64,000 nucleotides of DNA, taken from assembly GCA_958009085.1 (NCBI GenBank), contig OY253687.1, positions 310,001 through 374,000 on the forward strand, given 5' to 3'. Every line of letters starts with the position of its first letter. The stretch's first letter is position 1. Below, one piece after another: positions 29,140 through 64,000 of the stretch. This DNA is from Protoeuglena noctilucae. Taxonomy: Eukaryota. The notes under the pieces were generated by a model. That model was not told the origin of the DNA. It was given only the letters and a program-made list of their open reading frames with translations, and made no database searches. A program made the translations under genes and the position numbers.

Positions 29140-30103
29140 ACTGACTGACTCGCTTCAAAGGGTCCACAGCTTAGGCCTCAGGCCTATTGCTCGCCAGTTC
29201 TAGCCTATGACTAGGGGTCCCTGGACCTGGCTTAAGCCGCTTTGGCAGCACAAGGGCCTATGCTACCAATACCCAAGAAGTTTGCATCAACTGCGTAGTG
29301 TACATCCGCGCAGCCGAGCCAGAGGTGGAAACCGAAGGTAAAAACCACCCGAAGGCGAGGAGGGCAAGCCCCCCCGTGCCGGTGAAGGCGCAAGCAAGAA
29401 GCAAGCGCAAGGCCCCCAGATACGAGGGCGGGTGCCCGCTAGGCGGGCTCAAAGGGCTGCAGCAAGGCAGCGGGGGCAGCTGCAAGACAGCGGGTAGGCG
29501 GCGCGGCGGTTGCCATTCCCCCCGACTCGCAGGGCCGGGCTGGGGTGGCGGGCTCAGTGGCCCACCGCTTGAGAGCCCTTGTGCATGGGGAGGTGCCCCT
29601 GGGGCGCCGTCCTCTGCACCCTGGGCCCGGCCGCCCCATCATGGCGGCGCTCGGACACGAAGGCCGATGGGGAAGGGGAGTGGGCGCCCCACGCCCGGCG
29701 CGGGCACACGGTCCATGCTGAACCACTGGCCCGCCTGCTGGATCTCTTGGACGACAGCCTGACGCTGGGAGAAGAAGGCGCCCCCCACCGTCTTGGCGAT
29801 GACGCGGCGCACCCGAGTGAGCACCTCGCCCGTGCCCGGGGGCCGGGCGTGGGGCAGCCGGCGCAGGGTGGTGTGGTACAGGACCATCGTGCCCCGTGCC
29901 GCCATGGCCCAGGCGGAGGCGACGATGAGCCACAGGGTCGGCGGCCAGTTGGGCGGCGTCTGCAGGCCGAGCACGTGGCCGGCCGTGAGCTGCTCAGAGG
30001 GCCCCAATGCCCAGGCTCACAGCGCTCGACGTGCCTCCGTGACGCGCGGGCAGAGCCACAGGGCGTGGCTGCGAGTGTTGGGGGGGGCCGCGCCGTCCTC
30101 GGT
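29140..30103 (-). mobile_element. 5'-truncated non-LTR retrotransposon (LINE ORF2 C-terminus plus 3' UTR)
   Basis: 15-bp target-site duplication cctcgtcttgggctg at 29125-29139 and 30104-30118, single-copy at the empty paralogous site 23716-23730. (AGTC)n tail at the element 3' end. Translation HALWLCPRVTEARRAL*AWALG...HVLGLQTPPNWPPTLWLIV resembles the LINE CCHC knuckle and downstream region, with one in-frame stop. Confidence 0.8.
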
Positions 30104-30720
30104 CCTCGTCTTGGGCTGGCTGGCTCTGTCGGAGGAGGTCGCGGGTTCGTCCCCCGCCGGCAGCGCCGACGCGGTGCTGGAGCTGGAGCACGTCTCCGCC
30201 GTGCGCGGGCGGCTGCTGTGGGAGGCGCTCTGCGCCGTCCTGGGCCTGGCGGAGGGGGGCAGCCTCGTGCTGCGCGTGCCCGACTGCCTCACGCGCGCCA
30301 CCGTGGGCGTCCTGTACGTGCTGCACCGCTCGTTCGCGCGAACGCACGTCGCCCGGGCCGGCACGCAGTGCGCCGCCAGCCCCGACTGGCTGGTGGTGCT
30401 GTGGGACTTCCTGGGACTGCGCGCTGCCGCCAAGCGCGTGCTGTCGGCGGCCCTCGACCGCCACAACGCGCTGGGCGACGGGTGCGCCGAGGAGCTGGCC
30501 GACGTGGTGCCCCCGGTCGAGTACATGGGGTCGGCGTTCTTCAAGTACATCTGCACGAGGAACGCGCTCCTGGGCAAGCACGAGGTCGAGCGGCGCAACG
30601 GCGTCGCGGGCGCCGGGGCGGGCGAGGAGGCCAGGCGCGTGACCGTTGCAGACGCGTGCGACGCGCTCGGGCTGCCCGACCCGGGCGCTGCTGGAGGTGC
30701 GGGGAAGCGGAGGGGCGTGA
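30104..30720 (+). pseudogene. Duplicated last exon of CMTR2 without upstream exons
   Basis: Near-identical to 23716-24337 (5 mismatches in the first ~100 bp); interrupted by the LINE at its 5' end and altered by a deletion near the stop. Confidence 0.88.
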
Positions 30721-31315
30721 GGGGCGGACAGGATCGTCTTAGCAGCGATCGGCGCGGGCCAGCACCTGTATGTGGACTTGATATTTGATTCACGGCCATT
30801 GGCTGTGGTCCATTGCGGACGATTTGGCGACACTTGGGTCTTGCGTAGGTGCCAGCGGTCAACCCTGCTCCGGGCGACCATTTCAAGCTCGCGAGCAACG
30901 CTATCCGCGACAGAATCGATGCATGGACTGCACAGCGGTGCGTGGCGCGGCCATTATCCGGGCGAGAGCAGCGAGGGTCGACGTTTCTTGATTGAGTGAG
31001 ATTCCGACCGAGGCTGCTGGCGCTGACTCACAAGACGGTTTCAGGTAAACATCATTGCGGCGATCTACCCGACCGCGACCCTGCACGGGCCACGGGGAGC
31101 TTCCGCGGCATGGCCGCACTCTCTGAGATGCATGGGTGCTCCAACGCTTTGCCCTCCTGCTTCGGAACAAGAATATCTATGTCCACAGCAAGGGTTTGGA
31201 TGCTCGCATGCCCCGTACACGCAGGGGAGCTACTGTGCTCAGATTGTGGTGCGTGGCAGGCCTGGGCACCCGCTACGGAGCTTCACCGGCATCAGAGAAC
31301 GCGTGGGAGCAGCAA

Positions 31316-34300: not shown

Positions 34301-34454
34301 GGAAGGAGATGCTCAGGCCTTCTGCTTGGTGGAGGCCAGTGTGGAGCTGTGCCTGCACGCAATGACTGCCGCGTCCATTGACATGCTGCCTCTCTTTTCT
34401 GACGGGTTGCCAATTCCCGCATTCGTTTTCCCCAAGCACCGCAACTCGCAGTAG
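31316..34454 (+). CDS. Asteroid/ASTE1-like XPG/FEN1-family PIN-domain nuclease, paralog B
   Basis: Same exon structure and the same five acidic motifs as paralog A. The last intron (donor 33595, acceptor 33766) is phase-mismatched unless another donor is used. Confidence 0.68.
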
Positions 34455-40126: not shown

Positions 40127-40326
40127 NNNNNNNNNNNNNNNNNNNNNNNNNNNNNNNNNNNNNNNNNNNNNNNNNNNNNNNNNNNNNNNNNNNNNNNNNN
40201 NNNNNNNNNNNNNNNNNNNNNNNNNNNNNNNNNNNNNNNNNNNNNNNNNNNNNNNNNNNNNNNNNNNNNNNNNNNNNNNNNNNNNNNNNNNNNNNNNNNN
40301 NNNNNNNNNNNNNNNNNNNNNNNNNN
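40127..40326. other. Assembly gap (200 N)
   Basis: Run of N. Confidence 1.
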
Positions 40327-43700: not shown

Positions 43701-45016
43701 TGAGAGAGAGGCTGTCAGTCGGGTGCGAGGAGGAGTGGTTGGTGTGATGCGCCACGCTACAAATGGACCAACTGAGGGACCCTGTGTGACCCAATCACAC
43801 CGAGACATGCACCGTCCACGTCACCAGCACTACATCACACAACACAGCCCCACATACCCCATCCCCCACTCGCCCCCCTCACCTCTCGCCCGCCCCGCCT
43901 CCTCCTCCGCCCTCCCCGCCCTCGCCCGGTGCTCCCCCTCACGCTCGGCCGCCTGTGTCGCTGCCGCCCTCGCTTCCGCAGCCTCGCGCTCTGCCTGCTG
44001 CGCGCGCCGCTCCGCGCCCGCCACCTGCGCCGATGCGCAGTCGCGACAGGTTAGTTCACATAACGAGCTGAGCTGGTGGGCTGGCCCTCAGCAGGACACT
44101 CTAAGCGCCAGTTCCCATCCATCGCATATCAGCTCTCACTGCCCCAAGCTCTCACCTTTGCCTGCATCACCTCCATCTCCCGCTGCAGCGACGCCAGCTG
44201 CGTCCGGGCGTGGTGCAGGTCGCCGTCCAGGCTGGAAGCGTGCTGCCCCGCACGCTCCACCTCCCGACCCAGCGCCGCGCCCTCCGCCTCCGCCGCGCGA
44301 AGCCGGGACGCCAGAGACTGCGCTTGACGCGATAATAATAAGCATGTTCTTGCAATGGAAGTATCGCGCGCGGCCGCCGCTCGCCGGTCGCGCGGAGGCA
44401 GAGCAAAGCGTGTTGTCATGCACGGCTGCTCTCCCCGCCCCGGGGACCCTTCCCGGCCCCTCCCGCGCGCCCCGCACCTCCCTCTCGGCTTCCGCCGCCT
44501 CGGCGCGGTCGCGCATCGCCGCGCGATCGACGTCCGCGGCCGCGAGCTTCTCTTTGAGCGCCACGCCCCATCGGTACAGCCCCTGCAGCTCCCCTCCCGC
44601 GTCCTGCAGCACCGCCTGCGCCTCGCGCAGCTGGTCCACCGCGCGCACCGCGAGCTTCCTGCGCGTCGTTGCGCTCAGCTGCGCGCCCTCCTTCTCCGCC
44701 ATCGAACGGAGGCACCCGGACAGCGCGGCCGCAGCCGTGCGCATCTGCTGGAAGACCACGTGCCAGCCCCTGCGACGAGATGGTCGGGGAAGCGTTTAGG
44801 TAGTTGTTTCGGCGCGCGGCGCGTCACTTTCAGAGAGACGCGGAGGAAAAGCGACCCCCGACGCTGGGCGCCGGGAGAGCACCGACTCCGCAAGGGCCGG
44901 CGAGGCAGGGCGCACCCGGGGGCGGATCCGGAAGGCAGACTCGGTTCATCGTCCCGCTCCGCCGGGGCCGCTGGGGCCCCATCGGCGGAGGCGCGGAGGA
45001 CGGCCGGGCCCGTCAT
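40782..45016 (-). CDS. Hypothetical coiled-coil protein with His/Pro-rich disordered C-terminus
   Basis: About 10 short heptad-rich exons (e.g. AADNLALLMRVRELE, QVAMNRELMGRKEEVEWQL), a long exon ~41029-41900 and terminal exon 40846-40782 ending TGA. Start uncertain. Confidence 0.62.
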
Positions 45017-45982
45017 GAATTTACCATGCCCCGCCGGCTGTCTGCTAGAACGCGTACAGCGACCGAAAAGAGAGTCAAACGACGGACGCTTCGGAAAGGG
45101 ACGCAGGGTCAGGGAACCCCCAGGAGCCGGGGACGGCCGCGACCTGTCGCAGGTGACAACGCGCTCAAAACAACGGCCCAGCAAAGAGGCCTGGACGGTG
45201 GGCCGCGCGGACCGCGGAGAGCTTGGCGCATCCGGAGGCAGGCTCGGCCCTCAAGATGGGCCGAGGTGCGGCTGAGCGAGCAGGGAATGACCGGGCGGTG
45301 TCAGATCGCGAGCCTGACGGACGTCGCGGCCATCTGTTCGGTCGCTATGCACGTGAAGGGTGTTTTGCCGCAGTGCTCCTCGCGCGTTCCCTCGAGCCTT
45401 GGTTCCGGTGCAAACCCCTTCGCACGTTGCGCTGCCTCGGACCCGGCGCCGACGGTGAGGATGGGCCGCGCATGCGCGTGTCGATCGAGAGCCGCGTGCC
45501 CCGAATCGCGGAGCGGTCCCCGAGGGAGCGCCTCGACACGGGGCTCTTTGTCCTGATTCCCTCGCGCCGCTCCGCGTCCTGGTCCTGCGATGTGACTCCC
45601 ACGCCCGTCTTTTCACCGTGCACTTGCCAATCGCTCACGGCATCGCGCCTGTCGGCCCCGCCCGCCGTGCCCAGCGCAGGCACACTCCGCCACGGGTTTG
45701 AGGCCGAAGCTCGCGGCCTCCTTGCATCGAAGCCCCGTTGCTTACTAGCGAGCGTTGGTGCTTTGAGCACACATGGCATCGGGGGGCTCACGCTGCTGTA
45801 TTTCCGCGGCTCCGGGCCCTGCGCGTAACGCGATCCTTGTGGGGTTTCAAGGCTACACTGACCTTCCGTTTTCAACTATCTGTCGCAGGGCTCGCACGTG
45901 GTTCTTCCGACCAACACTGCGGAGCCTGCCTTCGTTCCTCCGGCGCCGGACTGTCCGCGACGGGTTCTCATAGCGACACGCG

Positions 45983-48900
45983 ATGCAGACCGCTGCGGCC
46001 CGACCGCGGCTGGGCGCCGTGGCCGCCCACGCGCCGCGTCGCGCCGTTGTCGCCGCCGCCGTGCGAGCGCCACCCGCCGAGTGCGCCCTGGGCCCCCGAT
46101 GGAGAGGCGAGTGGGATTGCGAAGTCATGTTATATGTAATGATTCTCTTCGCGCTTGTCTGAGCACGTTACCGCTTCCTAATCGCCGCAGAGCCTTCCCG
46201 ATGCGCGAGCGCATGTGCCCCGCCCGTCGCAGCAGCACGCTGGCACGTCCGCTGCCGGTCGAGCGCGGCCGTGGCGGGGTCCCCCGCGGAAGGCGAACCG
46301 AGCGGCAGCGGCAGTGGTACTGACACCACCACCACCGCGTCGTCGTCCCCCTACTCGCGTGCCTTCCTCGCCACTCGTCTCATCACGTTTGCCGGGATCG
46401 TGCTGGGATACTCGTGCTTCTACCTGACCCGGTGAGGGATAATACTAGCGGCGGCGTGAACGAATCACTTTGCACTCTGCGTGCATTGACAAACCCCAAC
46501 CCCACAGTAGTGAAAGACACGCACCATACCACCGCACCCCTCACACAAACACAAAAACACCCACCCTCTCTCGCTCTTTACCCCTCTCAGCAACTCCCTC
46601 ACCTACACGGCCCCCGTCATGGTCGCCACGCGCTCGCTTAACATCGACATCACCAACGTCGGTGCTATGACGTCCATCTTCCCCATCGCATATGGGTGCT
46701 CCAAGTTCGTGGCGGGGGTGCTGGGTGAGTTTTTAGTGGAATGGGGAGGTGGAGTGATTGAGATGGGTGAGGTTGGTGAGGGTGACTGTGTTGTGGCATG
46801 GCGTGGCGGGGGCGTAGGTGCGTGGGTGTCGGTCGAGCCTCAGTTATTAGTACTGTCAAATTAATGACCATTGATAAATAACCACTGTCTCCCCTTCTGC
46901 AGGCGCCAAGCTGTCCCCTGCCATCCTGCTGGGTGCGGGGCTGTGCTCCACGGCGGCCATCAACATCATGTTCGGGTTCGGATCATCACTCGGGTGGTTC
47001 TGGTGAGTAGAAATATGTATTGGAGCTGTGATATGTATGAACAAGTTATGCACATGACAGATCTTGCCTCATCTAACTAAGCCACTCGCCACCGATTCAT
47101 CCCCACCGATTCATCCCCACCCACCCATCCACTTGCAGCTTCTGGTGGGCCCTGAACGGCGTGCTTCAGGGCACGGGCGGCCCCGCCTGCGCCCGCATCC
47201 TGACCAATTGGTTCGCATCCAAAGAACGGGGCACTTACTGGGGCATGTGGAACATCGCGCACAATTTGGGGGGGTTCCTGGCCCCCATCATCGCCGGGAC
47301 CGGTGAGGCTGCTAGTTACTATCATATTATTTACTATTACTATTACTATTACTATTACTATTACTATCACTGTCACTGTCACTTGTCACTGTCACTGTCA
47401 TCACTGTCACTGTCACCATCACCATCACTATCACTATTACTGTTACTGTTACTGTCACTATCACCTTCACCTTCACCCCTCCCCCCCGCAGCCGCCAAGC
47501 TGTACGGGTGGAAGTGGGGCATGTGGGTGCCCGGGATATGCGGATTGGTGCTGGGGGTGCTGATTCTGGCGGGGGTCAAGGGTTCCCCCGAGGAGGCGGG
47601 GTTTGACCCGGTGGAGCAGGAAACGACTGCGAAAAAGGACAAGGGGGAGGGTGAAGGTGAGAATTGAAACAATAACACTTGACTGATAATCGTAAGTTTG
47701 TAGCACTGCTAATGGATGGGTTAATGGGTGAGTTGAGTGGAAGGTGGGTGGGGTTTGACCCGGTGGAGCAGGAGACGACGACTGGGGCGAAGAGGAAGGC
47801 TAAGGGGGAGGGGAAGGTGAGGGATTGAGTGATTGAGTAATAGTGCTTATGGATAATTGCAATAATGGATGGGTTTTGATGGGAAGGTGAGCGGGTTTTG
47901 ACCCAGTGGAACCCCCGTCGACATGCTGGTGCAAGACGTTGCTATCTACAGTAGTGCTTGTAACCAATTTAAACCAATAAGTAACTACACCCCTTCTCCC
48001 CACCCCCAGCCCCTTCCCAAGAGCGCTCTCTCGTGGACATGCTGGTGCAAGACGTGCTGCGCAACCCGTACCTATGGGGACTGGCGCTGACGTATTTCTT
48101 CATCTACGTCGTTAGGCAGGGCGTCACGTCGTGGTTCGTGTTTTACCTGATCAAGGCCAAGGGGGTGGCGGACGCGGGGTCGGCGGCGCTCAGGTGGGGG
48201 AGTGGGTTCAATGGGCGTTAATTATAGGGGTAAATGGGAATTGGGTGGTTGATAATGGATATGGATGTGGTTGATTGGCTGGGTGGCGGACGCGGGGTCA
48301 CCAGCTTGGTTAGGAGTAGCTGGGTTCGCTTTTACTATTGATCTCTCTCATCTCACTCCCCGTCACCCCTTATCCCCCTTATCTCAGGGTGTCTGGGCTG
48401 GAGCTGGGGGGTCTCTTCGGGTCGCTGCTGGCGGGGCGTCTGTCCGACCACCTCATCAGCAAAGGGGGCAAGGGGGGGGCGGTGGGGAAGCGCATACAGG
48501 CGAGTTGCTGAGAATGCGGGGTTGTTTGGTTTGCAATATTGTGTATGTGATAGCAACTCATCAGCAGGGGTGGTGGTGAAGGGGGGTGGTGGGCATCCAT
48601 CAGTTATGCCCGTCAACAAGTACCTGATGACACCTCTAAATCTATTGTTTATTGCATCTGATACATAATTATATCATTGGTACGTATCCCTTCTCCCCCC
48701 AGGTGGTATATATAACACATATCATTTATCATCATTACCCCTTTCCCCCCTTACAGGTGGTGCTGGGCTACACCGTGGGCATTATTTAACAATCGACAGC
48801 TACTGATAATATCAATATATCCAACCTTATTCACATGTCTTCCCCCTCCCAGGTGGTGCTGGGCTACACGGTGGGCATCGCGGCCATGCTGGTGGCCTTC

Positions 48901-49666
48901 GCGTCTACTCCCGCGTCCCTGGGGTGGCTGCAGTGGGTGACGGTCTTCATGATCGGGTTCTTCCTCTACGGACCGCAGATGCTCATCGGGCTCTGCGGGG
49001 CGGAGGTGAGAGAGGGGGTTGAGTAAGGGGTTTCAAGTGCTAATGGGGCTGTGTGGGGCGGAGGTGGAGGGGGGGGGGGGTAGGGGTTGGGTGCTGTGGG
49101 GTGGTGCAAAGGTTCAGTTGTAAACAGATTAGTACGAAATCCATTTGCTAGCTTCCATCGCATCCTGTGCGTCCCAAGTCAGTCAGTCAGTCCGTCCATG
49201 CACTGCTCGTCGTGTCCACTATTACTATTACAGTTATTATCATTATACATTACCTAATCTTCTCCCATCCGCAGATTGTGGGCCCCAAGTCGGTGGGTGC
49301 GTCTGAGGGCTTCCTGGGCTGGATTGCGTACCTGGGGGCAGCCAACGCCGGCATCCCCCTCTCCATCATCGTCAAGGAGTTCGGTGAGCGGGTGATAATA
49401 TATGAATGAGTTAATAGTACGTAAAAAAATTGGAAACGCATGAACACACGTCACCCCTTCCACTGTCCTTGTTGTGTTTAACACACTCTCACCCATATTT
49501 CACACCAACCATCTCCCCTCATCTCTCCCCCCCAGGCTGGTCTGCGTATTTCTCCACACTGCTCGCCGCCTGTGGATTCGCGTGCCTGCTGATGCTGCCC
49601 ATGCTCAACGTCAAGAGCTACGTGCAACGCGTGGCGGCTAAGAAAGCGAAAGCGGGGGGGGTGTGA
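45983..49666 (+). CDS. uhpC: Plastid UhpC/GlpT-family hexose-phosphate MFS transporter
   Basis: Ala/Arg-rich transit peptide; GYSCFYLTRNS, AYGCSKF, NWFASKERGTYWGMWNIAHNLGG, YVVRQGVTSW, ELGGLFGSLLAGRLSD, GFFLYGPQMLIGLCGAE, ASEGFLGWIAYLGAANAGIP. About 12 exons. Confidence 0.93.
47317..47476 (+). repeat. Intronic compound microsatellite (TAT/TAC)n-(CACTGT)n
   Basis: Read directly. Confidence 0.9.
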
Positions 49667-49920
49667 GGGATGTGAGGGGGGGGCTGTGAGGGATGGGAGG
49701 GTGGGGGTGGGGGAGTGGCAGTGGGGGTAGGGGTGGGGTGACAGTGGGGGTGGCAGTGAGGGTGGCAGTGGGGGTGGCAGTGAGGGTGGCATGGGGGGTG
49801 GCAGTGAGATTGGTGGGAGAGTGGGGTGGCAGTGAGGGTGGCAGTGGGGGTAACAGTGAGGGTGAGAGTGTGAGTGGAGGTGGCAGTGAGAGTGGGGGCA
49901 GTGAGAGTGAGAGTGGAGCA
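49667..49920 (+). repeat. Hexamer-based minisatellite (GTGGCA/GTGAGG/GTGGGG)n
   Basis: Same motif family at 42437-42566, 53198-53245, and as reverse complement at 39530-39585 and 63820-63880. Confidence 0.85.
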
Positions 49921-51077
49921 ATGAGGCGTCTGTTGTAGACGTTACAGTCGACAAGCGCTAATGCTCTCCGATGCATGTTTGGTATCAACTGTCGACAATT
50001 AACCTCCCGCCAAACCGTAACCCTGTCGCGTCGACCTTTCCTGCGCTTTTGAATGGTCGGCATGCCGATTAAAACATACGCATAGATGCAGAGAGCGCAG
50101 CGTTGGGCAAGGGAGTTTACTACTAGCAATACTAACGATAGTTTCGGAGAGTGAGCGACACCGTGCATGCCACATGCACACACAAATGCTGGAAAGCTAT
50201 CCATGATCTACAGAGCAGGGAGTGCGTGGGAATGCCTGGGCATGGAAATGCAAAGTCGATGACAAAGAGACTTAGTGTGCAACAGCTTGACCGACCCCAC
50301 CACTACCGCTACCCCAGAAGCCCTTCCCTTGTTAGCCACACACCCCTCACACCCCCCAGTCAGGCATTACCGCCCCCACCCGGCCCACGCGCGCATTTTG
50401 GGTGACGACAGCGCCACATATCGCATCCAACGCTCGCGATGACCCATGGATGGCAACGACGATGGGTGGTCGAGCAATTGTGGGTGACTGAGCGTTGTTG
50501 GTTGGTCTGGTTGGTCGAGCAATGGTGGGTGGTCCAGCGATGCAAGTTGGTTTGGTGATTGAGGGTGGTCGAGCAGTAGTGGGTGGATAAGCGACGATGG
50601 GGGCTGGTCTGTGTTCGTGGCAGGCACAGCAGGCTCAACCACCCCGTTGCTGTGCCCCACCAATGCCACCCCATCCCCAGCCACCCCACCACCCTCCCCA
50701 TTCCCTCCCACCCCATTGCTGTGCCCATCCCCAGCCACCCCTCCCACCCCACCACCATCTCTGCTCCTAGCCCCCCCGTTGCCCTCACCACCCAGCCCAT
50801 CCCCTGCCACCCGCAATGCCGCATCCCCTGCCACCCCTCCACTCTGCCCCATCCCAGCCACCCCATTGCCCTCCCTGCTCCCTTCCTCCCAACCCCTCTC
50901 ACCACCCAGCCCCATCCCTCCCACCCCACCACCCTCACCACTCCGCCCCATCAACGCAACCCCACCCCTGTCACCCCCCTGCCCCATGCAAGCCACCCGC
51001 AATGCCGCCTCCACCCCCGGCCACGCGATTAGAGAAGCCTCGAATGCCCTCTCCTGATCCTCACGCTCTCGCTCCTG

Positions 51078-51181
51078 CGATTATTAGTGAGCAGGAGATG
51101 ATCAGCAAGCATGAGATGATCAGCAAGCAGGGGATGATCAGCGAACAGGCGATTATCAGCAAGCAGACGATTCTCATGAGC
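51078..51181 (+). repeat. 18-bp tandem repeat, about 5-6 degenerate copies
   Basis: Consensus near gatgatcagcaagcagga. Confidence 0.85.
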
Positions 51182-51300
51182 AATAACGGCAACAAGGTAC
51201 AGAGGCAGTGCCATGCATCACAGCACCAATAAAACAGACACAAACACAAACGCGCACGACGCAACACAACCGAAAGCGTCGTGTCGTTACTATCGCGTCA

Positions 51301-54300
51301 CTATCGCGTCACTAGCGCGTTGCTACCGCATCCAAATCCCCTCACGTCGATCTCCCTCTTCTCCTTTTCCGTCCTGGGGTTATACCACATGTTTGAAACG
51401 CTCTTGATCATGGAGTAGTCCCTCTGCCTCACGCGGCCCCCGTGGGTCTCGAAGTGCTTGCGGTTCATGCGGATCATGTAGATGATGCGATCTTTCAAAT
51501 GCTTGACCTGGGGGGAGTAAGACAGTGGATGTTTGTGATTTTACTAGTATAATAATGCTATGTTATACTGCAATGGGTGCTTGCGGTTCATGCGGATCAT
51601 CTAGATCCAGATGCTTGACCTGGGGGGATGTGTGGGGGTGGATGCTTAGTTTGCTTACTATAAATAATAATATAGTTCATTGCAATTCTTATAATTATAG
51701 GTAATTATAGTTATACAGTTACATTTTATATTGATGCATACATACAGCTGTAATAACACTAACAGATAATATCATTGCATAGTGATCAACAACCTCCCAT
51801 TCCTCCGACTCGCCTGGTTGATGTGGTGTTCCGAGACATAGGTGTACCCGATGTTGGTGAGGGGCAATCGATCGGCAAACTCCTCCCATGCAGCCAGCGA
51901 CGTCTGCATGTTCTCACCCACGTTCACCGCCCACACGCGGCCCGTGGCCTGCGTGGCAGGGGAATAAAGGGATGTGCGATCATATATAAGTACTAATAAC
52001 GATAGTAATATGAGTATTGTAAGTATTTAAACGGCAAAACATTCATTCACTGTTTAATTTAAAAAATAACCATAAATAAACTATAAATTTACAATAATCA
52101 TCACTGGTAATATCAACAAAAGATTTAAATTCACCCAGCAACCTCACCACCCCATCGACTGACTCACCAGGGTATCAACGAGCTTCCGCAGCTGCGGGTC
52201 GAGCATCCCCGCGTTGAAGTTCTGGATATACAGGATCTGCACGCGGGTATTGACCCACAGGGCGTCCAGAAGGGCGTCGATGTCGCGGGGGGTGGCGCGG
52301 GCGTTCATGAAGTTTTTCAAACGCAGCACGGAGCCACGGCCGTTGAACGCGGTAGAATTGGAGCGAATGGAGGCGAGGAGGTTGCTGCGGGGAGGGCAAG
52401 AAGATGGAAAAAAATGGTAAAAAGATGGGTAGCAATTGGGAGGGACTTGTTTTTGTGTGGTGTGTGGATTTGTTGACGTGTGTGGATGATAGTGAGGTCA
52501 CACTACCATGGCATCTTATAGTATACAACCATATCTAATTAAACATTCTCCGAACCACTCTCACCGGAAATCGCGATCGTTGACGGCCCTCTCCACCCCC
52601 TGCCGCGACCGCATGCCACGGCCCAGGGAGGCGACGCAGGGGTCGGGGCAGGGCTGATCATCATCGTCAACACACGGGCGATCCTCATCGCAAGGACGAT
52701 CGTCATCCGCCATCTGCCCACCTCCCGTCTGCACCTCCTCACACGGCCGCTCATCCCAACACCGACGCTCGCCATCAGCCACCTGCCCATCTCCACACGC
52801 CCGGTCCTCATCACACCGCTCCCCATCTCTGACCTGCCCATCTCCCATCTGCACCTCTCCACACTTGTCAGCCAACCCTTCCCCACCCACCTCCCCCACC
52901 CTATCCCCACTCCCACCCGCACCCTCAACCCCCCGCCCCCACCCCGCCCGCACCGCCGTTCGCTGATTGGGGTCAAAGCAAACAGGATACCGCAGCGCAG
53001 TGTTCTTGCTTAGCGGCACGCGCTGAGCTTCTGCCTCTACCCTCGCTGCATTGACGGCTTGTATGCAGGGGCTTTGGAGTGACCAGGCGTGGATGGGATA
53101 GCAGAGGGCGGGGCCGGAGATGGGGCGGGGGGAGTGGAGGGAGCGGAGGGGGAAGCGAAGACTGCGGGGGGAAGGGGGGGGGGGGGGGGTTTGGTGAGGG
53201 TGGTGATAAGGGTGGCAGTGGGGGTGGCAGTGGGGGTGGTGGTGGAAGTGAGCGAAGGTGAAAGCATCAACTCCATTCCTTTCCAATTGGAATGAATCGC
53301 CGCCACTGCCGCCACTCACCCGACCGACCTCCCTGTCTCGTCCCCCATCGTGCTCTGCCCTCCCCTCGCGTCCTCCTCGAACGTGCTCTGCCTCCCCGTC
53401 TCATCCCCAATCGTGCTCTGCATCATCCCCGCATATCCCTCGAACGTGCTCTGCCTCTCTCTCTCATATTCCTCAAATGTGCCCTGGACATCCTCGTGCC
53501 TCAGCAGAGGGGGAAGGGGGACATCGGCCGGCAGACGCTGCGGGGGGCGAAGGGCATACGTTCTGATACTCGCTTTCTGACAGCGTCGACCCTATGACAC
53601 ACAATGCGTCGTGAGCCACCCGCAATTACCTCCCCCCATCTCACCTACGCTCTCACATCCCAGGCCCCCATCTCACGTAACTAACACTATCATCCCACCC
53701 CAACCCACTCATCCATCCACACTCACCATGGGCGGTACATGACCCATCTCAATCATTATACGGTAACTAACACGATCATTTCAATACAACCCCATCATCC
53801 ACACTCACCATGGGGCACTTGGGGTGGCTATGAAGAAGCACATCTCACACAACCAATCAATTAGTAATTAGTAATACCAATCTAACCGCAACTACGAGTA
53901 ATCAAAACTCACCATGGGGCACTCTTTGTGATGGTAGAAGAAGTATGTCCCAGGCAGCAGTCCCTCCTCACTGTGCCCCTCCAACACCGCAGCCACGTTT
54001 ACTGGCACTCGCAGTCTTTTGACTGGCGGGGAGAGGGACAGGGGAGAGGCAGGGCGCTTGTGTTTTGCAACCATCGCGTGACTGCCACCCCGGCCACCAA
54101 CACCCTTGTTCTTAGCACCAACACCGGCCTTCGCAGCTATTGCCGATGCCGCAGCTCCCTTTCCCCGCTTCCCGGCAGCCCCTCGCTCCGCGCCCACCAC
54201 TTGTGCCGCACCCACACCACCCCGCTTGCCACCCTTGCCACCCCCCGCATCGCCCCACCCCGCTGCTACCCGCAACGCCGCCGTTACTCTCTGCGCCTCT

Positions 54301-57300
54301 CCCACCATCCGCCCCACCTCCCCGTCACCCTCATCCACCACAACCCTCAGCCCGACCAGCCGTGCCAGCCGTGCCACCACTGCCCGCTGCAGCCTCGCAC
54401 GCAGCAACCCAGCATCCGCCACAGATACTAGGGATGACCCAGGCCCAGCATCGGTATCGGTCAACTGCCCCACAGCATCTCCCGATTGCACCCTCCCGTC
54501 TCCCAACATTAATGCGCCGTTGTCACCCATCCCACCCACCACCTGACCCCCACCCACAATCCCTGCCACCCCGCCCGCCCCATCCCAATCGCCACCAACC
54601 GCGTCCTGCAACGCCTGCGCGGCCGCTTGCAGCTCGTTCAGCTCATGCAACGCAGCAACGGCATCGGTCGCGCTCAGGTGCGGGGGTAACGGGGGCGATT
54701 GGAACAGCTGGCGGGTGGCTGCGTCGACGGCCGCTTGTGCTGCAGCCTGGAGCAGGGAGCTGACGATGCGGGTGACGTCGGGGGAGTTGTGGGGGAGGAG
54801 CGGGGCAGGCGGCGGGGGTAGCGGTGCGGGTGCGAGTTGCGGTGCGGGTGCGGGTGGCAATGAGGGTGCAGGGGTGGGCAGGGATGAGGGCTGAGGGAGC
54901 CCCATTGACAATGGCTGGGCTGGGGCACTCGACACGAGTGCTGAGGATGCGGGGGCGGTCAGCTGCAGCGCTGATGTCGGCGGGAGGGGTGAGAGGGGTG
55001 CGATGCTGCCTGCCGCCTTTGGCAAAGCATTTGGCAAGGGCGGGATCGTCTGCCCCATGCTGATGCTGAAGGCGCTTGAGAGGTCGGTGGGCGGCGGCGG
55101 GATGGGCAGGATGAGGGAGGGCGTGGATGGGGTGGGGTGGCCGGGATGGGTGGCGGTGGTGGGCAGGCGGTGTGGCGCGCTGAACCCCACCCCATCGCCA
55201 TCGGCAGTGAGAGGTCCAGTCACCGCCACACCAGTCCCGGCCATGCTCAGCCCAACTGTGTCAGTCACACCAGCCCCTGCATAGGCAGCACCTGCCATGC
55301 TAAACCCCGCCACACGATCGCCAGCCACACCAGCCCCGCCCACGCTCCACCCCGGCATGCCCAGCCCCGCTATGCCAGTCACCGCCCCACCAATACCACC
55401 CCCAACGCTCAGCCCCGCAATGCCAAACCCCGCCCCACCCCCACCGATGCCCCCCATGCCCAACCCCGCACTGCCCCACTCGCCCCTGCTCACCCTGCCA
55501 CGCTGTGCGCCGGGCAATGTGAGCCCAACCGTCAGAGGCCCATGCGCAGTGACACCCGTCCCTGCTAGGCCAGCCCCCGCCATGCTAAGCCCTGCTAGTA
55601 GCGGCCCATTTGCAGCCGCCCCTCTCCCCGCAACAGTTGATGTGGCTGGCAGGGGTTGCGCTGCCCCCACCGCCGCCTCTGGCCCCGCTAAGCGGCTCGC
55701 CCCCTCTGGCCCGAACACCCCATCTGCTATTGGACGCGCCAACGCTGTTTCTGCCATTTCATTTGCTGTGCCACTCACCCCCACTGCCCCCACCGTCCCC
55801 ACCGTTGCCTCTGGCCTTGGATAGGAAAGCACCCGCGCAGCCAGGTCATCTTGCAGCGGCAGGGACAGGCGCACATCGTGCTGTGACGACACATTGTGCT
55901 GGGGCTGTGATGGCAATGGGAGGGACGTGGGGAGCTGGGGAAGGGAGAGTTGGGGCAGAGACTGCTGTGGCTGTAAGGGCTGTTGGAGTAAAGGCTGTTG
56001 GTGCGCTGCAGACGGCTGCTGCTGCGTGCCTGGCAACGGCTGCCACCGCATGAATTGGCCGGGGCCCGACAGCCGGGAAAGCGCCGACAGACCGGGCAAG
56101 TGAGGCAGCCCCACAGCGGGGAGATTGCCGGGCATCCCCACTGGTACCGCAGACAATGGCGCATTGCTGATGGGCGATGCCCCACCCATTGCTGCACCCA
56201 CAGGCATGGGCAGCGGCTCACTCGCAGCAGCGCTCGCGCTAACGGGCAACGCACCAGCCATGGTCAATGCCCCACTCCCAGCAGCATGCATGGTTACAGG
56301 CGACGTCCCGCTCATGCCCAATGCCCCACTGGTACTATCAGCAGCACCCTTGTCCCAAAGCAATGCATTGCCATCAGCAGCACCCGCACCCACAGGCACG
56401 GCCCTGCCCACGGCAGCACCCACGCCCCCAGGTAATGCCCGACTGACACCGGCACCCACATCTGCAGACAGTGGCCCGATCCTAGGCAATGCCCTGCCCA
56501 CATCGGCAGCTGATGTCTGACCGACAGCAGCACCCAGGATGGGTGTGGAGGGCGCAGGGATGGGTGCGTTGGTTGATGCAGGGATGGGCGCAGTGGCCGG
56601 TGCAGTGATCGGTGGCACAGTGATGGGTGCAGTGACGGGCATCAATGAAGGTGCATTGGCCGGTGCAGGTGCAATGACAGGCGCCTGGGCCAGTGTTGAT
56701 GGCGTTGCCGGTTGCAGCTGCAGTGTCGCCTGCCCCGCTGCAGCCACCCTGGCTGGCGCCTGACCCCGACCCGGGGGGTGGGTCAGTCCCACACAGTTGG
56801 GGAGGTCTGGGCTCGGGAGGGGCAGCGCTGGATGCAGGGAGAGCGGGGAGGGCAACTGCAGAGGCGCGGAGTATGCGTATGGGTTGACGCCCAACAGCGA
56901 CTGTGCCAGTGACAGTGGCAATGACTGTTGCATAGATTGCGATGTCATGGGCAGCATGGTCGATTGCAGCCTGACATCCAACATCCTCTGCAGCTGGGGC
57001 GGTGGCGAGGAAGGCCGCATGGCGTCGGACAGCGGTGCTGACTGCAGCGGCATGGGCTGTGACAGTTGTGCTGACTGTGGTATGGGCTGCGCCGATAAGG
57101 GCTCCGAACGCCGCAGCATCCCCAGCACTGAAAGGGGAAGCGACTCTGGCGGCAGCGCTGATGGCTGTAGCGATGGTGGCAGTGACTGTGGCAGTGGCGG
57201 TAACACCGGCAACCCTCCCACCGCACCAGTCCCCTCCTCTACCAACCCCACTCCCGCACCCTCCCCTGCCCCCTGCTCTACCAACCCCACCGCACCCCCA

Positions 57301-59207
57301 CCGCCACTGCCACCCTCACCAAGCCCCACCACCCCCCCAGCTTCCCCTCCCCTCCCACCCACACCGCTGTCCATCGGAACCCCATTGCCGCTCACCACAA
57401 CCGCAGCCCCACCACCCCCCTCTGCACTCCGCACCCCCACACCCATCCCATCACCCCCCTCGCTCGCCACCCCCGCCCCCGCCCCCACACCCTCCTCTGC
57501 AACCCCCACCCCCGCCCCCATCCCCGCATCTTCTCGTTGTTTCAGAGACTCCCTCAGCTGCGCCAGCACCCCCTCCACCTCAGCCCGGCTCAAAGTCACA
57601 CTCCCCACACCGCCCCTACCCCCGCCCCTCCCTCGCCCCCTCCCTCGCCCCCTGCTGCCACCCCGCGCGCCCCCCCTCACCACCGCAGCTCTCTCCGGCA
57701 CATATGCGTCATCCACACCCACGCCCACCCCACCCCCGCTTATGCCAGCACCCGCGTCGCCACCCGCCCCACCCTCACCCGCACCCACGCCACCGCTTGC
57801 CACCAACCCCTGCTCCCTCTGCCCCCCTCCCTCATCCTCCCTATCACCCCCATCTCCCCCACCACCCCTCTCCCCACCCTGCTCCGCCCCTCCCGCACCC
57901 ACCCCACGCTCCGACCCTTTGCCAGCCCCGCGCCTGCGACCCCCCCTCCCACTCCTACCACCACCCAAGCTCTCAGTTACCGAAGACTCCACCCGTGGCC
58001 CTTCCATCCCCGAAACTCCCATCGCACGCGCCCCCACCACCCCCACTGGCTTGCCTATCGCCACCGCCGCTTGCCCTCCATCCCGCCCCCCATCTCGCCC
58101 ATCACCGCCCCGCCCCCGCCCCGCCGGCCGCGCCCGGCGCCGCTCCCCAGCGATGTCTCCCGCAATCTCCATTTCTACTGCAAACTCGGCATCCCGCAAT
58201 CGGTGTGGCATCAGCACAGCGCGGGTCGACCGACGCTCCCCCACCGTCCCATTCCCAACCCCTCCCCTCAACCCTGCCCTGCCCCTGCCAGTCCGCTTCA
58301 CCACACCCGCCCGCTTGACCTTTGCTGGTTTATAACCCACTGCAATCTTGGCAGCCCCACTATGGTTAGTCACCTCACTCTGCCTTGCACCCCCAGTTTG
58401 CTTGGCACCCCCACTGTTCTTAGCACCCGCACTCTGCCTCACCCCCCCACTCCGCTTCACCCCTCCCGACCCCCTCGCCCCAGCCCGCACCTCCCCACGC
58501 CCCCCACCATCTCCCGCCTGCTTTCCCTTCCCAGCAGCAAGCACAGCGTTATCAGCCACCAGCGACCGCCTCGCCACACGCGAGCTGGTGATGCGGATCT
58601 TATTCCCAGGACCTTTCTTCGCAGGTGCGGCTGTTTCTGCCCTCGCCTTTCCCTCAGCCCCCACCACCGCCGCCCCCACTGCCGCCGTCGCCCCACCCAC
58701 CCTTGCTGCCTTGGCCGGCCGCTCCTGGTCGTTATCCCCGACATCGCCGCTTTCGACCGAATCAACCAGACGCTTAGATGAGCGACGGCGGGGCTGGGGT
58801 GGGGCTTTGCTCGTCTGCCTGCCACCCACCCTGATCCCAACCCCGCTCACGCCCGCCCCATCCCCACCCGCCGCATCCCTGCCCGCTGCACCCCTGCCCC
58901 TCTTGGGCCTGCTCGCCTCATTCGCCCCCGCCGTCTCTCGGCGTTTCATGCAGTCTGCGTGGGCCCGGTCTGTGCCGCACGCCCGGCTTTGGGCGCGGGT
59001 CAGCTGCACGCAGACGGGGCACTGCCCGGATCCCTCCGCCACGAAATCGCGAACGAGTGACACGGCGGATCGATGCTCGAGTGTCATGGGCGAGGTTTTC
59101 CGGCGGCTGGCGGACCCGGGGCTCGGAGAAACGCTCGGGGGCGCTGCGGGTGCGATGAGAGCACGCGCGGTGGTTTGCCGGCGAAGAGACCAGCGCGGAG
59201 ATTGCAC
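51301..59207 (-). CDS. Very large low-complexity protein with a globular, possibly RNI/LRR-like C-terminal domain
   Basis: Exon 59207-53913 (~5.3 kb, Gly/Ala/Pro-rich), then exons ~53593-53321, ~53150-52565, 52385-52168, 51948-51814, 51507-51301 giving LRLKNF...DALLDALWVNTRVQILYIQNF...RVWAVNVGEN...YTYVSEHH...IRMNRK...NMWYNP. Confidence 0.68.
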
Positions 59208-59985
59208 GATGAAATGAAGTATTGATAGTGTGCGCGAGAGGAGTTACGCAGGCGTGTGCGCGCGGCGGGTGGCGAGAGCGTGGAAAACAGTTGACGTGGC
59301 AACTGTTCGCGACCGCGCGCGCGCATTACGCGGCGCGCATTACCTGGCGACGGAACGTCATTCGCGGCACGTTCCTCCGCGGCCGGCGGTCCCTCCGTGG
59401 CGGCCGTCGAATGGCCAGCCCTCCCGGCCCTCCCCCGCCCGCCGCCACGGCCCCGCCCACGGGCCGGCGCCATCAGATCCTGCGCGACAACGCTGGCCAC
59501 TCCAATCGCGCCTCTTGCCGCGTAAGATCAGAACGATGGATCGGCTGCCATCGATGAAGCTGTGTTGTGGCGGGCACGCTGGGCATGCAGCAGCCAGCCC
59601 TGTCGATCCCGGAGGGAGAGGAGGGCATCTCCGACATCCTCGCAAAACAACCGTCTCACCGACCACTCCCGAGTCGCGCTTGGCCAGGGATTGCTGCGCC
59701 CTTCATGCTTCGCTTGCTCGGCGCACTACTTGTCTAGTCCTTCAGCTTCTCACGCACTCCCAGCGAGCTCTCGTCGACCGCGATGGAATCTGAGCACCCG
59801 CCTGAAGCATGCGGGCGCCAACAGCAGCCAACCAGTTTCACGCGCCAGTCCCGCGCTGGAATAGCCGGTCACGGGCGTCTAGTTCATCGAATGGCATTCT
59901 TCCGGCTGCAGCATTCGCGTCAACACGACGCCCTGGTGGTGCGGCCGCTCCGGCGACCCGGAGCAAGAGCGTGCGCATCAAAAAA

Positions 59986-62900
59986 ATGGCGCCCAGCGGC
60001 TGCCCTCTGCACGGGACAGCCATCCCCGTCGCTCGCCGCCCTGTCGATTGGCGGAGGACGATTCGACGGGGAGGGGGATTGGAGGGGATCGGTGGGGCAT
60101 GGACGGGTCACGCGCAGCACCAGACGCGTCGTGTGGCGATTTCCCGCGCGGAGGGCGATGGGCAGGCCGGCAGGAACAACGGCGTCGGCACCCTGGAGTC
60201 AACTGGAAGGGTGTCGCCGGACCTGGTGCGGATCCGCGCGCCCTGCGCCCTGCGCCGGCCCTGGCCAGTCATGGTTGGGTTCGCCTCACTCCCGCCCTCT
60301 TCGGCTCCTCGCAGGTTCCGATCGAGGTCGCCCTCTCTCGTGCGAAACGTAAGGATGGTCACCGGCGGGCCAAGGCGCCGGAACCCGCGTCGCCGGCCGC
60401 GTCTCCTCCTCCCAAGCCACGCCAAGCACCGATGCTCCTCGCTCGCGCGGCCCGGGAGCCCCGCGCCCTGCCCGCCGCCCCGGACGTCGCGACCTCCAAC
60501 CGCGTGAGCATCTGGCTCGACAGCCAGGGCGCCTCGCAGAGCCCGGAGGCCTTCGTGGAGACGCGCCAGTTCGCGTGGAGCGAGGAGGGCTACAGGTGCG
60601 CGGAGCCGCGGACCTCAGGCGCGCGATGGAATGTAGTGCAATGCAAGCGTCGTACGGCAGCGTCGAGGGTGCGAAGCGACGCCTCCGCAGTGCGCCGCTG
60701 CGTTCGCTGTCCATCTGGTGCTTCATCATCCAGGCGCGCGCGGGGCTCTTCTTGCTGGACCAGAAGTGGAGCTATCCGGGAGGTTTCGATGATGCCAAGA
60801 AGTCGCGCCGTGCGACGGTTCTGGGCGCGTGGCTGCGCGACAACATGCTCGCACTCGGCCCGACCTTCATCAAGATCGGACAGCTCTTCAGCGCGCGCTC
60901 GGACCTCCTCGCCCCGGAGGTCGTCAACGAGCTCTCGAAGCTCCAGGACCGCGTGCCGAGCTTCCGGCCGGGTGAGGGCGGGCGAGCGGTGCGGCTGCGG
61001 GTGTTGCGTGTACCGGTGCTTGCGTGGGTGCGTGCATTGCGTATGTCTGCACTTGGGCAGAGTACTGTTTGCTTCGCAATTAGCTACCCCCGCTCTTCCC
61101 ACCTCTGTGCCTCAGAGCTCGCCCGCAAGATCGTGGAGCGTGAGCTGGGGGGTCGCATTGAGGACCTCTTTGCCTCCTTCGACGCCCAGCCCATCGCGGC
61201 AGCATCCCTCGGACAGGCGAGGAGAGGGTGTTGGACGTTTCAGCGGCTTAAACAGGATCGACTGGGCTGTGAGAACTCGCATTTTAATGCATCGTTTCAT
61301 TGCAATGGCTCCCTCATATGTAAGAAATCTACTTATGTAGATGACTTCACTGCACTGCTTCGTGTCGCCACGCTTACCCCTACCCGCTCTCGCTCCCTTC
61401 CTACCCGCACTGCACTGACTCCCCCCACGCTCTCACAACGACATTGCAGGTGCACCGCGCTCGCCTCTTCACGGGCGAGGACGTGGTGGTGAAAGTGCAG
61501 CGTCCGGGACTGGAGAAGCTCTTCGCGATTGACTTGGGGAACCTGGAGATCCTCGCAAGGCAGCTGGACGCGCAGGAGGAGGGGAGGGACTTCACGGGGA
61601 TATTCCAGTGAGTGGACATGCGTGTGCGATGGGTATGTGTGGTTGATTGCATGCGATGGGTGTGGTTGATTGCGATGTGTGACTTCACGGGGATATTCCA
61701 GTGAGTGGACGCGTGCGCGCATGCGATGGGTGTGTTGCAATCGATGTGTATGTGTGGTTGCATGCGATGTGCCACTCCTTGCCTGTCACTCTCCCACTCC
61801 TCGCCTGCAAAGCAACCCAGTCCCATCGCACTCCGACACCATCCTCCCACTCTCCCACCCTCACCACCACCCACTCCCCCTCCACTCACAAAGGGAGTGT
61901 AAAACGATCCTTTTTCAGGAGGTTGATTACATCGCCGAGGGTCGAAACGCCGACCGCTTCCGACGCAACTTCAACAATAACACCCCCTGGGTGCGCGTGC
62001 CCCGCGTTTACTGGCAGCTGTCGAGTCCGCGCATTCTGACGCTTGAGTACCTGCCGGGGACCAAGATTACCGATCTGGGGAAATTGAAGGAACAGGTGAG
62101 GGGGGGTGTGGGTAGCAGTGTGGGTGTGTGAGTGTGTGGGTGGTGGGAGAGAGGGGATGCAATTGGTGTAATGGATTTGCAAGGACTGAGCGAGCTTGCA
62201 CACTCGCAATCGGATAAGTCGGCGTGGCAAGACTAGCGCGTGGACTGTCCATAGCACATACCCAGCACCCACATCACGTCCCCGCATCCCCCACATCACG
62301 TCACGTTCCTCACTCGCCCCTCCCCCCGCAGAATCAAGACCTGTCCCTCCTGGCAAGGCGCATGACCGAGTGCTACCTCACGCAGCTGCTTAGGCACGGG
62401 TTCTTCCACGCCGGTGAGTAAGGGTGGACATGATAATTAACAATGTGATGTTGACATTGATTAACGATACGATATTGGCAGGATCATTGGAGATGTAGTG
62501 TCACCTGACGTCGCTGCCACGGGATGGATTACTTGATCTCGTTAAGCGGGGGAAGGGGTTGCGATGCATACGTGCATGGCCACCCTTCCCTCGCTTAACG
62601 AAGCCAAGGAATCCGTGTCGCTGCAGCCGCGTCGAATAGCGCTTTTAGTTATCATCTCAAATAATTGTCCGTCTGAGGTTAGGGTACAAATCGTAGATGA
62701 TACCCCGGTGACCCCGCGTGCACGCCCGTGACTACTCTCACGCACTCCACCCCTCGCCCTAATCACGCCCCGTCAACTATCATTCTCACGCACTCCACCC
62801 CTCATTATCTCTCCCGCAGACCCCCACCCCGGCAACCTGGCCGTCGATGCGCAGGGCAACCTCGTGTTTTATGATTTCGGTGAGGGGATGGGGATTAATT

Positions 62901-64000
62901 GGTGATGACGGTGATTATTGCAATCGTTAGGCCAACCCCACCCCTCGCCTCTCACACTCGCTCGCACCCTCACCTGCACCCTCCCCCTCTCCCCCAGGCA
63001 TGATGGGCGAGATCGTCAGCAACGTGCGGGAGAATCTCCTGGAGGTCTTCTACGGAATCTACGGGAAGGACACGCAGCAGGCGAGGATTAATTTATTTAC
63101 ATAAAGATAATTATGATAATAATTACACATTTATAACTGCATATCTATGACATCTATCATGAAAACATAAAATATGAGTAATTACACCCATCACTCCATT
63201 CCACCCAGGTGTTAGACGCCCTGATAGCCCTGGAGATCGTCAAGCCCACCGGCGACTTGCTGTCGGTGCGTCGGTCGGTGTCGTATTTCCTGGATACCTT
63301 CACCAAGCAGACGCAGAGGGAGGAGACGATCCGGTGAGTGGGTGATAATAAGGGGGTAGTGAATGACGATGGGATGCAGTGGGTGATGAGGGATGCGCAG
63401 CGAGGGATCACTCTTACCAACACTGATGCGTACTCCTTACTTACTATATATTTACTATATAATCTAATTTAAATTTCTTATCGCAGCAACATTGGCGAGG
63501 ACCTCTTTGCCACTTTTACAAACAGTGTTAATAATCGTTTATAAAATAATATATTCATTACTTGTCATCCGCAGCAACATCGGCGAGGACCTCTTCGCCA
63601 TCGCGCTGGACCAGCCCTTCCGCTTCCCCGCCACTTTTACGTTTGTGCTTCGTGCTTTCTCCACTCTGGAAGGTATTGGAAAACGATTGGACGACTCATA
63701 TCGGTTCTCGGTGGTCGCCACGCCCTACTTCAACGAGCTGCTGGCCATCAAGGTGACTTCTATGTACTGGAGGGTTGTTATTAATACTAACCCTCTGCTT
63801 GATGCAACGAGGTGCTATCTCCACTGCCACCCCCACAGCCACCCCCGCTGCCACCCTTATCACCACCCATATCACCACCCCCGCTGCTTCTTTTTCCCTA
63901 ACCACAGGACGCCTCCCAGCGCGGCCAGCTGGTGCTGACCCAGCTGCAGCAACAGGTCGAGGCCCAGGCAGACGCGGCCGCGCAGGCCCCCACCCGCATC
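59986..64000 (+). CDS. ABC1K7: ABC1/UbiB atypical kinase, ABC1K7 (SIA1)-like, plastid; continues past window end
   Basis: LGPTFIKIGQ, LSKLQDRVP, PIAAASLGQVH, VVVKVQRP, EGRNADRF, LTLEYLPG, GFFHADPHPGN, FYDFGMMG, IGEDLFAIALDQPFRFPATFTFVLRAFSTLEGIG. Confidence 0.9.

Follow-up and report, generated by a model that had tools for sequence, protein, structure and literature searches.

Why are the ends of exons copied into the neighbouring introns of three consecutive genes in the planktonic alga Protoeuglena noctilucae? The question was raised by a stretch of 64,000 nucleotides of its genome (contig OY253687.1, positions 310,001 to 374,000 of the forward strand; "the window" below), which corresponds to G000:C20:310001-374000 of the source genome (26.3 Mb in 27 contigs) and has a G+C content of about 64%. 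We use the word echo for a copy of an exon end plus its splice site that lies inside the neighbouring intron. Our results showed that echoes are real, junction-specific and widespread, although patchy in distribution. Judged by their codons, exon and echo resemble a pair of working alleles with a synonymous distance of about 0.15, to which about 0.03 of later decay was added; this split of the divergence is our own.

The sequence-only reading of the window had listed nine copy pairs, placed them in three consecutive genes and described their mismatches as mainly synonymous. All nine pairs were found to align where it had put them, and the genes are those of a major facilitator superfamily (MFS) transporter, a gene without a Pfam family and an ABC1 kinase. 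Eight ungapped comparisons within the window gave 9 synonymous and 2 non-synonymous differences, and the four codon pairs that it had quoted (ACC/ACG, ATT/ATC, TTT/TTC and GAG/GAA) are all synonymous. The features are given here with the RNA joints listed from RNA contigs of X9 and X11.

45983..49667, plus strand: host gene 1, a sugar-phosphate transporter of the MFS, UhpC-like to judge from the names given to its relatives, with 10 introns and one open spliced frame; Pfam MFS_1, E 1.4e-9; 5 introns among the listed RNA joints
47595..47661, plus strand: working exon end and donor (GT at 47657)
47747..47821, plus strand: donor echo with a period of about 152; the first 10 codons carry two synonymous changes, and there are two in-frame insertions (6 and 3 nt) and one 1-nt deletion
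47891..47910, plus strand: third, truncated copy of the exon end 47595-47661, score 15
47916..47939, plus strand: copy of the next-exon bases 48032-48055, adjoining the truncated donor-side copy; one synonymous change
48281..48299, plus strand: copy of 48163-48181, a source that ends 12 nt before the donor at 48194
48698..48707, plus strand: short third copy (10 nt) of the acceptor and first exon bases
48754..48782, plus strand: acceptor echo that copies 48850-48878 with one synonymous change; period 96
49038..49066, plus strand: donor echo of 48980-49008 with a period of 58 and four changes, of which 3 are synonymous and 1 is non-synonymous; RNA joint 49003>49273, true donor 49006 used
51346..59087, minus strand: host gene 2, no Pfam family, with a very long low-complexity first exon and short 3' exons; 3' end at or below 51346
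51577..51627, minus strand: acceptor echo of 51454-51515, decayed, with an 11-nt deletion and a stop codon
53803..53819, minus strand: donor echo of 53907-53923, period 104
53714..53732, minus strand: second donor echo, sharing its intron flank with 53796-53814; a secondary tandem expansion, period 82
60354..beyond 64000, plus strand: host gene 3, an ABC1 atypical kinase that continues into locus L012, with a further donor echo at L012:220-251; 9 RNA joints listed
61681..61710, plus strand: donor echo of 61588-61617, period 93, 30/30 identical; flank homologous but ragged; RNA joint 61607>61894, true donor 61608 used
63482..63519, plus strand: acceptor echo of 63570-63640 that has lost 33 nt between short direct repeats and carries two synonymous changes; RNA joint 63332>63574, true acceptor 63574 used

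Three of these copies (47891-47910, 49038-49066 and the piece at 48698-48707) came in addition to the nine, and two fall short of the junction, namely 48281-48299 and 47916-47939, the source of the latter beginning 22 nt past the acceptor.

We compared the window with short-read contigs from X5 and X6, two metagenome runs of one study. The X5 contigs cover 47490-49079, 50791-53162, 53215-57323 and 58078-64000, those of X6 cover 47490-48453, 50993-52146, 53294-54241 and 59410-64000, and both sets showed no differing letter and no difference of length at the echoes. The copy at 49038-49066, which lies at most 31 letters from a contig end, was left out of the bridged set. The sequence-only reading had allowed that the echoes might prove an assembly artefact, absent from long reads; the contigs compared here, although of short reads, carry them unchanged. 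An artefact of two merged haplotypes has in its favour that a mis-join would place two exon ends resembling different alleles one after the other, but the contigs of two runs from another year cross the window echoes without difference and the same pattern is found in unrelated assemblies (loci L083 and L088, below), and we regard this explanation as extremely unlikely. Positions 45500-54000 of the window were also present in four runs of one organism and in 2016 marine metagenomes and metatranscriptomes. Runs X16-X23, which carry the same species label, contained almost none of the sequence words of this stretch and were left out of the comparison. Wild samples (window 45001-64000) and European Nucleotide Archive (ENA) records were near-identical to the assembly, introns included, and the lineage looks clonal where it was sampled.

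The frequency of echoes was then determined in the window plus 800 kb taken from around and away from it (864 kb), with gene models from a self-trained hidden Markov model (HMM). The predicted introns were filtered by exon length, coding score and splice score, which kept 1330 of 1823 in the first 864 kb, and 38 loci selected for AT-rich introns were added for a total of 1569 predicted introns. Comparison of exon and adjacent intron in 906 high-confidence introns gave 37 matches at a score of at least 14, with about 1 expected when exons of other genes were used, and 2 inverted matches. Matches were present in 27 of 155 introns of at least 200 nt and in none of 537 introns of 80-150 nt. Of 148 matches in the 1569 introns, 124 lay within 5 nt of the junction and 98 exactly at it. 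The near end of the adjacent exon gave 97 matches, its far end 1 in 2591 tests and the ends of non-adjacent exons 4 in 2202, so that the proposal of a recurrent process tied to junctions was borne out. After exclusion from the codon count of 24 matches at more than 5 nt from the junction and 16 gapped ones, 108 ungapped junction echoes (73 donor, 35 acceptor) were counted in 84 of the 1569 introns, in 48 genes and on 17 contigs. In blind-picked blocks, 10 of 700 introns in 460 kb carried an echo, which extrapolates to roughly 570 introns genome-wide; this is a lower bound because weaker junction matches were also in excess (35 against 1.4 expected in 862 tests).

The exon-derived part of an echo measured 14-58 nt and the period 41-295 nt, with a median of about 103 nt. 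Identity, measured on the first 55 echoes, was about 0.9 over the exon part and splice motif and fell just beyond it to about 0.45, compared with 0.32 for unrelated introns. Echoes were single at 79 of 92 junction sides, while 13 sides had two or three ungapped copies, several of them with matching spacers. Introns with copies had a median length of 264 nt, reduced to 152 nt once the extra units were removed, in agreement with the earlier suggestion that the process lengthens introns. No echo was found among 470 introns in the first 700 nt of genes, whereas 30 of 263 introns located 2-5 kb from the gene start had one; the latter introns are longer, richer in A+T and G-skewed at their 5' end. 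Echoes were clustered by 25-kb bin (permutation p 0.0003), the bins having been chosen partly for their echoes.

Introns in general change along the genes of the 864 kb. With distance from the gene start their median length increased from 100 to 177 nt, their G+C decreased from 0.68 to 0.60, the G-skew at the 5' end rose and CpG became scarcer, while GC3 remained near 0.87. This trend runs opposite to the common pattern, in which the first intron is long. Beside echo-bearing introns, four-fold sites were 0.68 G and 0.23 C before donors, and 0.56 C and 0.31 G after acceptors, a split that mirrors the intron ends and is absent at short introns. GC-AG introns were frequent: among about 1980 predicted donors, 252 (about 13%) were GCGAG. 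The idea that each chromosome has a single centromere-like AT-rich region was considered and ruled out, an AT-rich donor pattern being present at 38 sites with up to eight on one contig; a 24-letter A/T pattern matched microsatellites only.

The differences between exon and echo were then sorted by codon position, which bears directly on an ordinary origin of the copies. In that explanation, about 100 nt across the junction are duplicated in tandem in one haplotype, as in a single-step version of the amphioxus mirage minisatellites discussed below; a survival filter sets the location, slippage turns over the low-complexity flanks, and conversion between exon and echo keeps the exon part alike. 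A plain tandem duplicate should have a ratio of non-synonymous to synonymous differences per site (pN/pS) near 0.5, since the echo is free to drift throughout and the exon only where changes are synonymous. Simulated neutral duplications run through the same detection gave 0.50-0.56, and conversion would place the ratio between 0.5 and 1.0 by our own derivation. The 108 echoes showed a pS of 0.183 (132/721 sites) and a pN of 0.041 (94/2285), a raw ratio of 0.225, which became 0.26 (gene bootstrap 95% range 0.17-0.37) once substitution type was controlled for and the free ends were trimmed. This value differs from 0.5 with P 2e-7, 31 of 41 informative genes were below 0.5, and the ratio was 0.21 in the 40 echoes of best coding score. 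Decay of CpG as the source of the synonymous bias was ruled out, transversions alone giving 0.19 for donors and 0.24 for acceptors. The 57 echoes without an amino-acid change still had a pS of 0.157. Synonymous counts were homogeneous (p 0.11) and non-synonymous counts overdispersed (p 0.001), a combination that fits a fixed distance between alleles plus a variable age. Indels of at least 3 nt were in frame in 9 of 11 cases.

Three controls were available for these values. A dead exon copy (window 30111-30722) had a pS of 0.043 and a pN of 0.054 with 257 of 288 flank letters identical in an ungapped comparison (89%), echo-echo pairs were near neutral (pS 0.13, pN 0.088), and a working paralogue pair (pS 0.28) had introns 56-72% identical, like the flanks of echoes. 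The intron flanks gave a similar result. A plain duplication predicts matching flanks in young copies, but among echoes of at least 22 nt without an amino-acid change the flank was at least 85% identical in 1 of 29; the flanks of perfect echoes were at or below 76% in 13 of 14, flank identity did not track echo decay (rho 0.06), and its median was 66% compared with 61% for other introns of the same gene. The purely local copy proposed from sequence alone is not upheld by the codon ratio of 0.22-0.26 and these poorly matched flanks. The plain duplication has in its favour the head-to-tail topology, a few perfect or near-perfect units, precedents in amphioxus and in the human F7 gene in the parts of those reports used below, and the fact that it requires no unseen allele. 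We consider it rather unlikely.

The explanation that we favour, and to which we give an even chance, is that echoes were left behind by recombination between two working alleles that had diverged, alike in exons and unlike in introns. An echo as found here consists of 14-58 nt of exon end, a splice motif and an intron end of the right composition and other sequence, about 100 nt from the real site, and its mainly synonymous differences and in-frame indels indicate that selection on the protein acted in the two lineages during most of the time since they parted. In the simplest route, a break would occur in the exon near the junction, in a cell with two alleles about 15% apart at synonymous sites. 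One broken end would invade the other allele, copy through the splice site into the unlike intron and join the other end end-to-end, because a short mismatched exon remnant cannot anneal. The duplication would lie at the junction because homology stops there, and the length of the echo would be capped because a longer remnant would anneal normally. An out-of-register crossover would yield an equal product. The outer site would still be used, the inner exon end would be spliced out with the intron and decay, and events with a competing inner site would be purged. Slippage or unequal exchange between the repeats, as some junctions show, would then give ordinary arrays of 3-4 units.

One-sided invasion combines homologous copying at one end with end joining at the other and is known from induced breaks and transgenes; Belmaaza and Chartrand, in 1994, and Puchta, in 1998, reportedly treated it, to judge by titles cited for it. 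Like echoes, it gives a partial duplication with one border set by the end of homology. Allele-like divergence, as a border copied from a template would show, was seen in echoes, and the template allele was not found. The literature searched gave no report of one-sided invasion as a genome-wide source of intron sequence. In the portion of the Schizophyllum study consulted, crossing-over between parents 14% diverged prefers exons (PMC4209137). The source genome gave matches to HAP2-GCS1 (gamete fusion), to two TP6A_N proteins (Spo11/TopoVIA) and to Ku. Just downstream of the HAP2-GCS1 match (G000:C18:498387-500900, locus L173) comes an intron that holds three donor echoes (C18:500624) and probably belongs to the same gene.

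The same diverged alleles may have acted on copies of another birth. Old ordinary duplicates could have been refreshed when, in a hybrid cell, the partner's exon converted the echo or the working exon and conversion stopped where homology ends. This would account equally for the low pN/pS, the homogeneous pS and the poor flanks, and the echoes of arrays have 5 synonymous and 2 other changes in common against their exon. However, if plain duplicates arose steadily, many young copies should have matching flanks, and the single case among 29 was seen; neither half of the spacer was better matched (22 proximal and 19 distal of 72), and an unseen allele is required here as well. Taken by itself the refreshing of old duplicates is improbable; the capture of allele ends, with this variant included, is probable.

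Several results weigh against allele capture. Because no donor allele turned up, we infer the donor step, and we likewise infer the end join itself. The X5 and X6 contigs, letter-for-letter equal to the window, held no diverged donor allele, and seven ENA proteins of gene 2 were identical or differed by one residue, away from the ends. A scan of 52 metagenome loci gave no sister lineage, the best having 90% protein identity and one intron, and a protein search for the sister allele gave one match, to the same kind of relative; an apparent 92% relative of gene 2 was ruled out as a sister, being identical to the window. Of 1037 echo-free introns, 36 contained a plain tandem repeat internal to the intron (period 25-117 nt), some echoes are clearly head-to-tail copies with near-identical flanks, and flanks were detectably homologous in 31 of 72, which is compatible with both models; the plain duplication gains from all three. 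At four-fold sites of acceptors, exon G faced echo C 15 times and the reverse 2 times, which two equal alleles do not predict. In-frame indels could also come from slippage in codon-periodic repeats. In relatives, the single echo of L083 looks like plain decay, and the pN/pS in L088 was 0.46 on 32 differences (14 synonymous, 18 not), as a plain duplication would have it. The gene models are predictions by an HMM that recovered 18 of 20 window introns, the same introns having seeded it, and the sample is enriched for echo-rich regions.

The suggestion that the copies create decoy splice sites was correct as to their sequence, the splice dinucleotides being intact in 69 of 73 donor and 27 of 35 acceptor echoes. 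The use of these decoys in RNA, the other point left to be checked, was absent from the listed joints of the X9 and X11 contigs, in which rare splice forms are hidden and 60 further joints lie outside the list; the true site was joined in all 3 echo-bearing introns among them. Splicing at the echo instead of the true site would lead to a stop or frameshift in 99 of 108 cases. The donor score was higher for the real site in 39 cases and for the echo in 14. We found no AG/GT arrangement that would allow an echo to be translated in place of the exon end, and periods were blind to frame (32, 43 and 33 for remainders 0, 1 and 2). Selection could keep echoes as splicing regulators, through weak sites that lead to nonsense-mediated decay, or as spare sites; the intact dinucleotides and the stops and frameshifts would suit this, and L088 and the read-through protein P0121 share an echo at one acceptor. 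But keeping an amino-acid sequence serves no regulator, echoes carry stops and deletions, and the indifference to frame, the lack of internal splice arrangements and the joints at true sites also argue against selection of this kind, which we hold to be very improbable.

Other candidates were rejected. Insertion templated by complementary DNA (cDNA), in which the copy would join two exons, was ruled out, as 1569 introns gave 2 candidates and both were donor echoes with an intron start resembling the next exon. An introner or repeated intron element was rejected after one 401-nt echo-bearing stretch matched only itself in the source genome, simple repeats being skipped. A G-rich/C-rich stem that would hide the decoys received no support from the one intron folded (z -0.79).

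We also looked for echoes in other green algae. The best named protein match of one exon, from one gene, was Pedinophyceae sp. YPF-701 (66% identity), by which the source organism is probably a green alga of the pedinophytes. The orthologue of the MFS gene in L083 (L083:2650-4410) has one intron, with a donor echo of period 85. That gene has 1 intron in this close relative and 10 in the window (45983-49667), so that intron density differs greatly between lineages. L088 is a Chlorella-type contig, one exon of which equals a Chlorella ohadii protein over 51 residues, and 7 of its 13 introns carry 8 echoes with periods of 75-124. The flanks of these 8 echoes had scores between -5.6 and 4.4, with 35 as the possible maximum, close to those of the gene's other introns; complex yet unrelated flanks beside an exon match of 45/46 are not what a plain duplication predicts. 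The public model of Chlorella ohadii protein P0126 (COHA_008742) reads through two acceptor echoes and their spacers, for about 60 false residues, where L088 has one echo; at the protein level, the Chlorella ohadii model has three copies where L088 has two. Loci L116 and L117 also held candidate copies, among 52 metagenome loci of which many were bacterial or intron-poor. The structure is thus not limited to the source species, while the codon bias is shown only there.

Of known systems, echoes are closest to the mirage minisatellites of amphioxus (Adh3, troponin C, the globins BflGb6 and BflGb9, and PGBD5), the origin of which is called unclear in the parts of the two reports available to us (PMC3087553, PMC3902484). 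According to the same parts, mirages are also tandem copies of an exon-intron boundary, at either end and within the intron, with units of up to about 160 bp, splice signals that are often intact and normal splicing unaffected; they occur at few loci, mostly as multi-unit arrays with 81-100% identity between units (BflGb6), concerted evolution and length instability. Algal echoes are direct copies across the boundary in the adjacent intron (124 of 148 within 5 nt; 37 direct and 2 inverted), and splicing used the true site in those 3 echo-bearing introns with listed joints. They differ in being present at hundreds of sites (extrapolated), mostly single (79 of 92 junction sides, arrays on 13), with a poorly matched intron part and an allele-like exon part; a similar whole unit was found in few arrays and, at 85% or more, in the 1 of 29 undecayed echoes. 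Because echoes work like mirages but lack two of their features, multi-unit arrays and whole units that are alike, we file them as a variant of mirages and not as members. The 37-bp variable number tandem repeat (VNTR) across the exon 7 donor in intron 7 of human F7 is also similar, since in the sections of its report used here the downstream donor copies are functional in principle but silent and the most upstream site is chosen; unlike echoes, it is one homogeneous locus, with no acceptor cases and no allele-like divergence described there (PMC1557585).

Two other processes share features with echoes. Repair-mediated duplications of vertebrates (Pace et al. 2009; PMC2671141, in the part consulted) are closely linked short copies made by synthesis-dependent repair that may include splice sites, with 4 of 824 donors partly exon and partly intron, a Ka/Ks near 1 and sometimes an inverted orientation, whereas among echoes junction copies dominate, are direct and have a pN/pS of 0.26 (0.17-0.37). 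The Rogers model of intron gain by tandem genomic duplication also involves a short tandem duplication at splice-like sequence; in the excerpt used (PMC3443670), an exonic AGGT segment is duplicated to give a new intron, while in echoes an existing splice site is duplicated and an existing intron grows, inside introns that have their own donor and acceptor used in RNA joints. The YPF-701 genome preprint, in the part at hand, mentions introns once and exon-end copies not at all. Titles and the starts of abstracts, with few subscription journals covered, gave no paper that describes copies of exon ends in algal introns on a genome-wide scale, or a synonymous bias in them, which is weak evidence.

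Elsewhere in the window, 23711-28109 and 30111-34450 form a tandem segmental duplication, with two fast-diverging copies of a gene without a Pfam family (pS 0.28, pN 0.17); the duplication also includes a dead copy of the last exon of a cap methyltransferase gene, and a further fragment lies near 29090-29150. Two 200-N scaffold gaps lie within genes, at approximately 14349-14548 and 40127-40326. The first exon of host gene 2 (1726 codons, 53910-59087, minus strand) is low-complexity without a Pfam match, and a comparison of its last 197 residues with 1.84 billion representatives gave no relative outside its own lineage.

If the favoured reading holds, echoes would be a concrete route of intron growth, at about 100 nt per event, and would provide hundreds of natural tests of the choice of the spliceosome between two near-equal sites. 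They are also a warning for annotators, since the public model of a Chlorella protein runs through such copies. If plain duplication were the true origin, the source genome would still be remarkable for mirages of unusual density throughout, with a codon bias that lacks an explanation. If the capture of allele ends is true, it would offer a mechanism for the boundary duplications of amphioxus whose origin was called unclear in the sections cited (PMC3087553, PMC3902484), and cryptic sex between distant strains of a clonal-looking planktonic alga would become countable and datable from one genome. In its widest form, which we put forward tentatively as somewhat short of an even chance, each echo would be a fossil repair junction between lineages about 15% apart at synonymous sites, and one haploid genome would record hundreds of outcrossings and retain fragments of alleles since lost; across green algae, both pedinophyte-like and Chlorella-type, introns may grow by this process, which may also seed the mirages of highly polymorphic animals.

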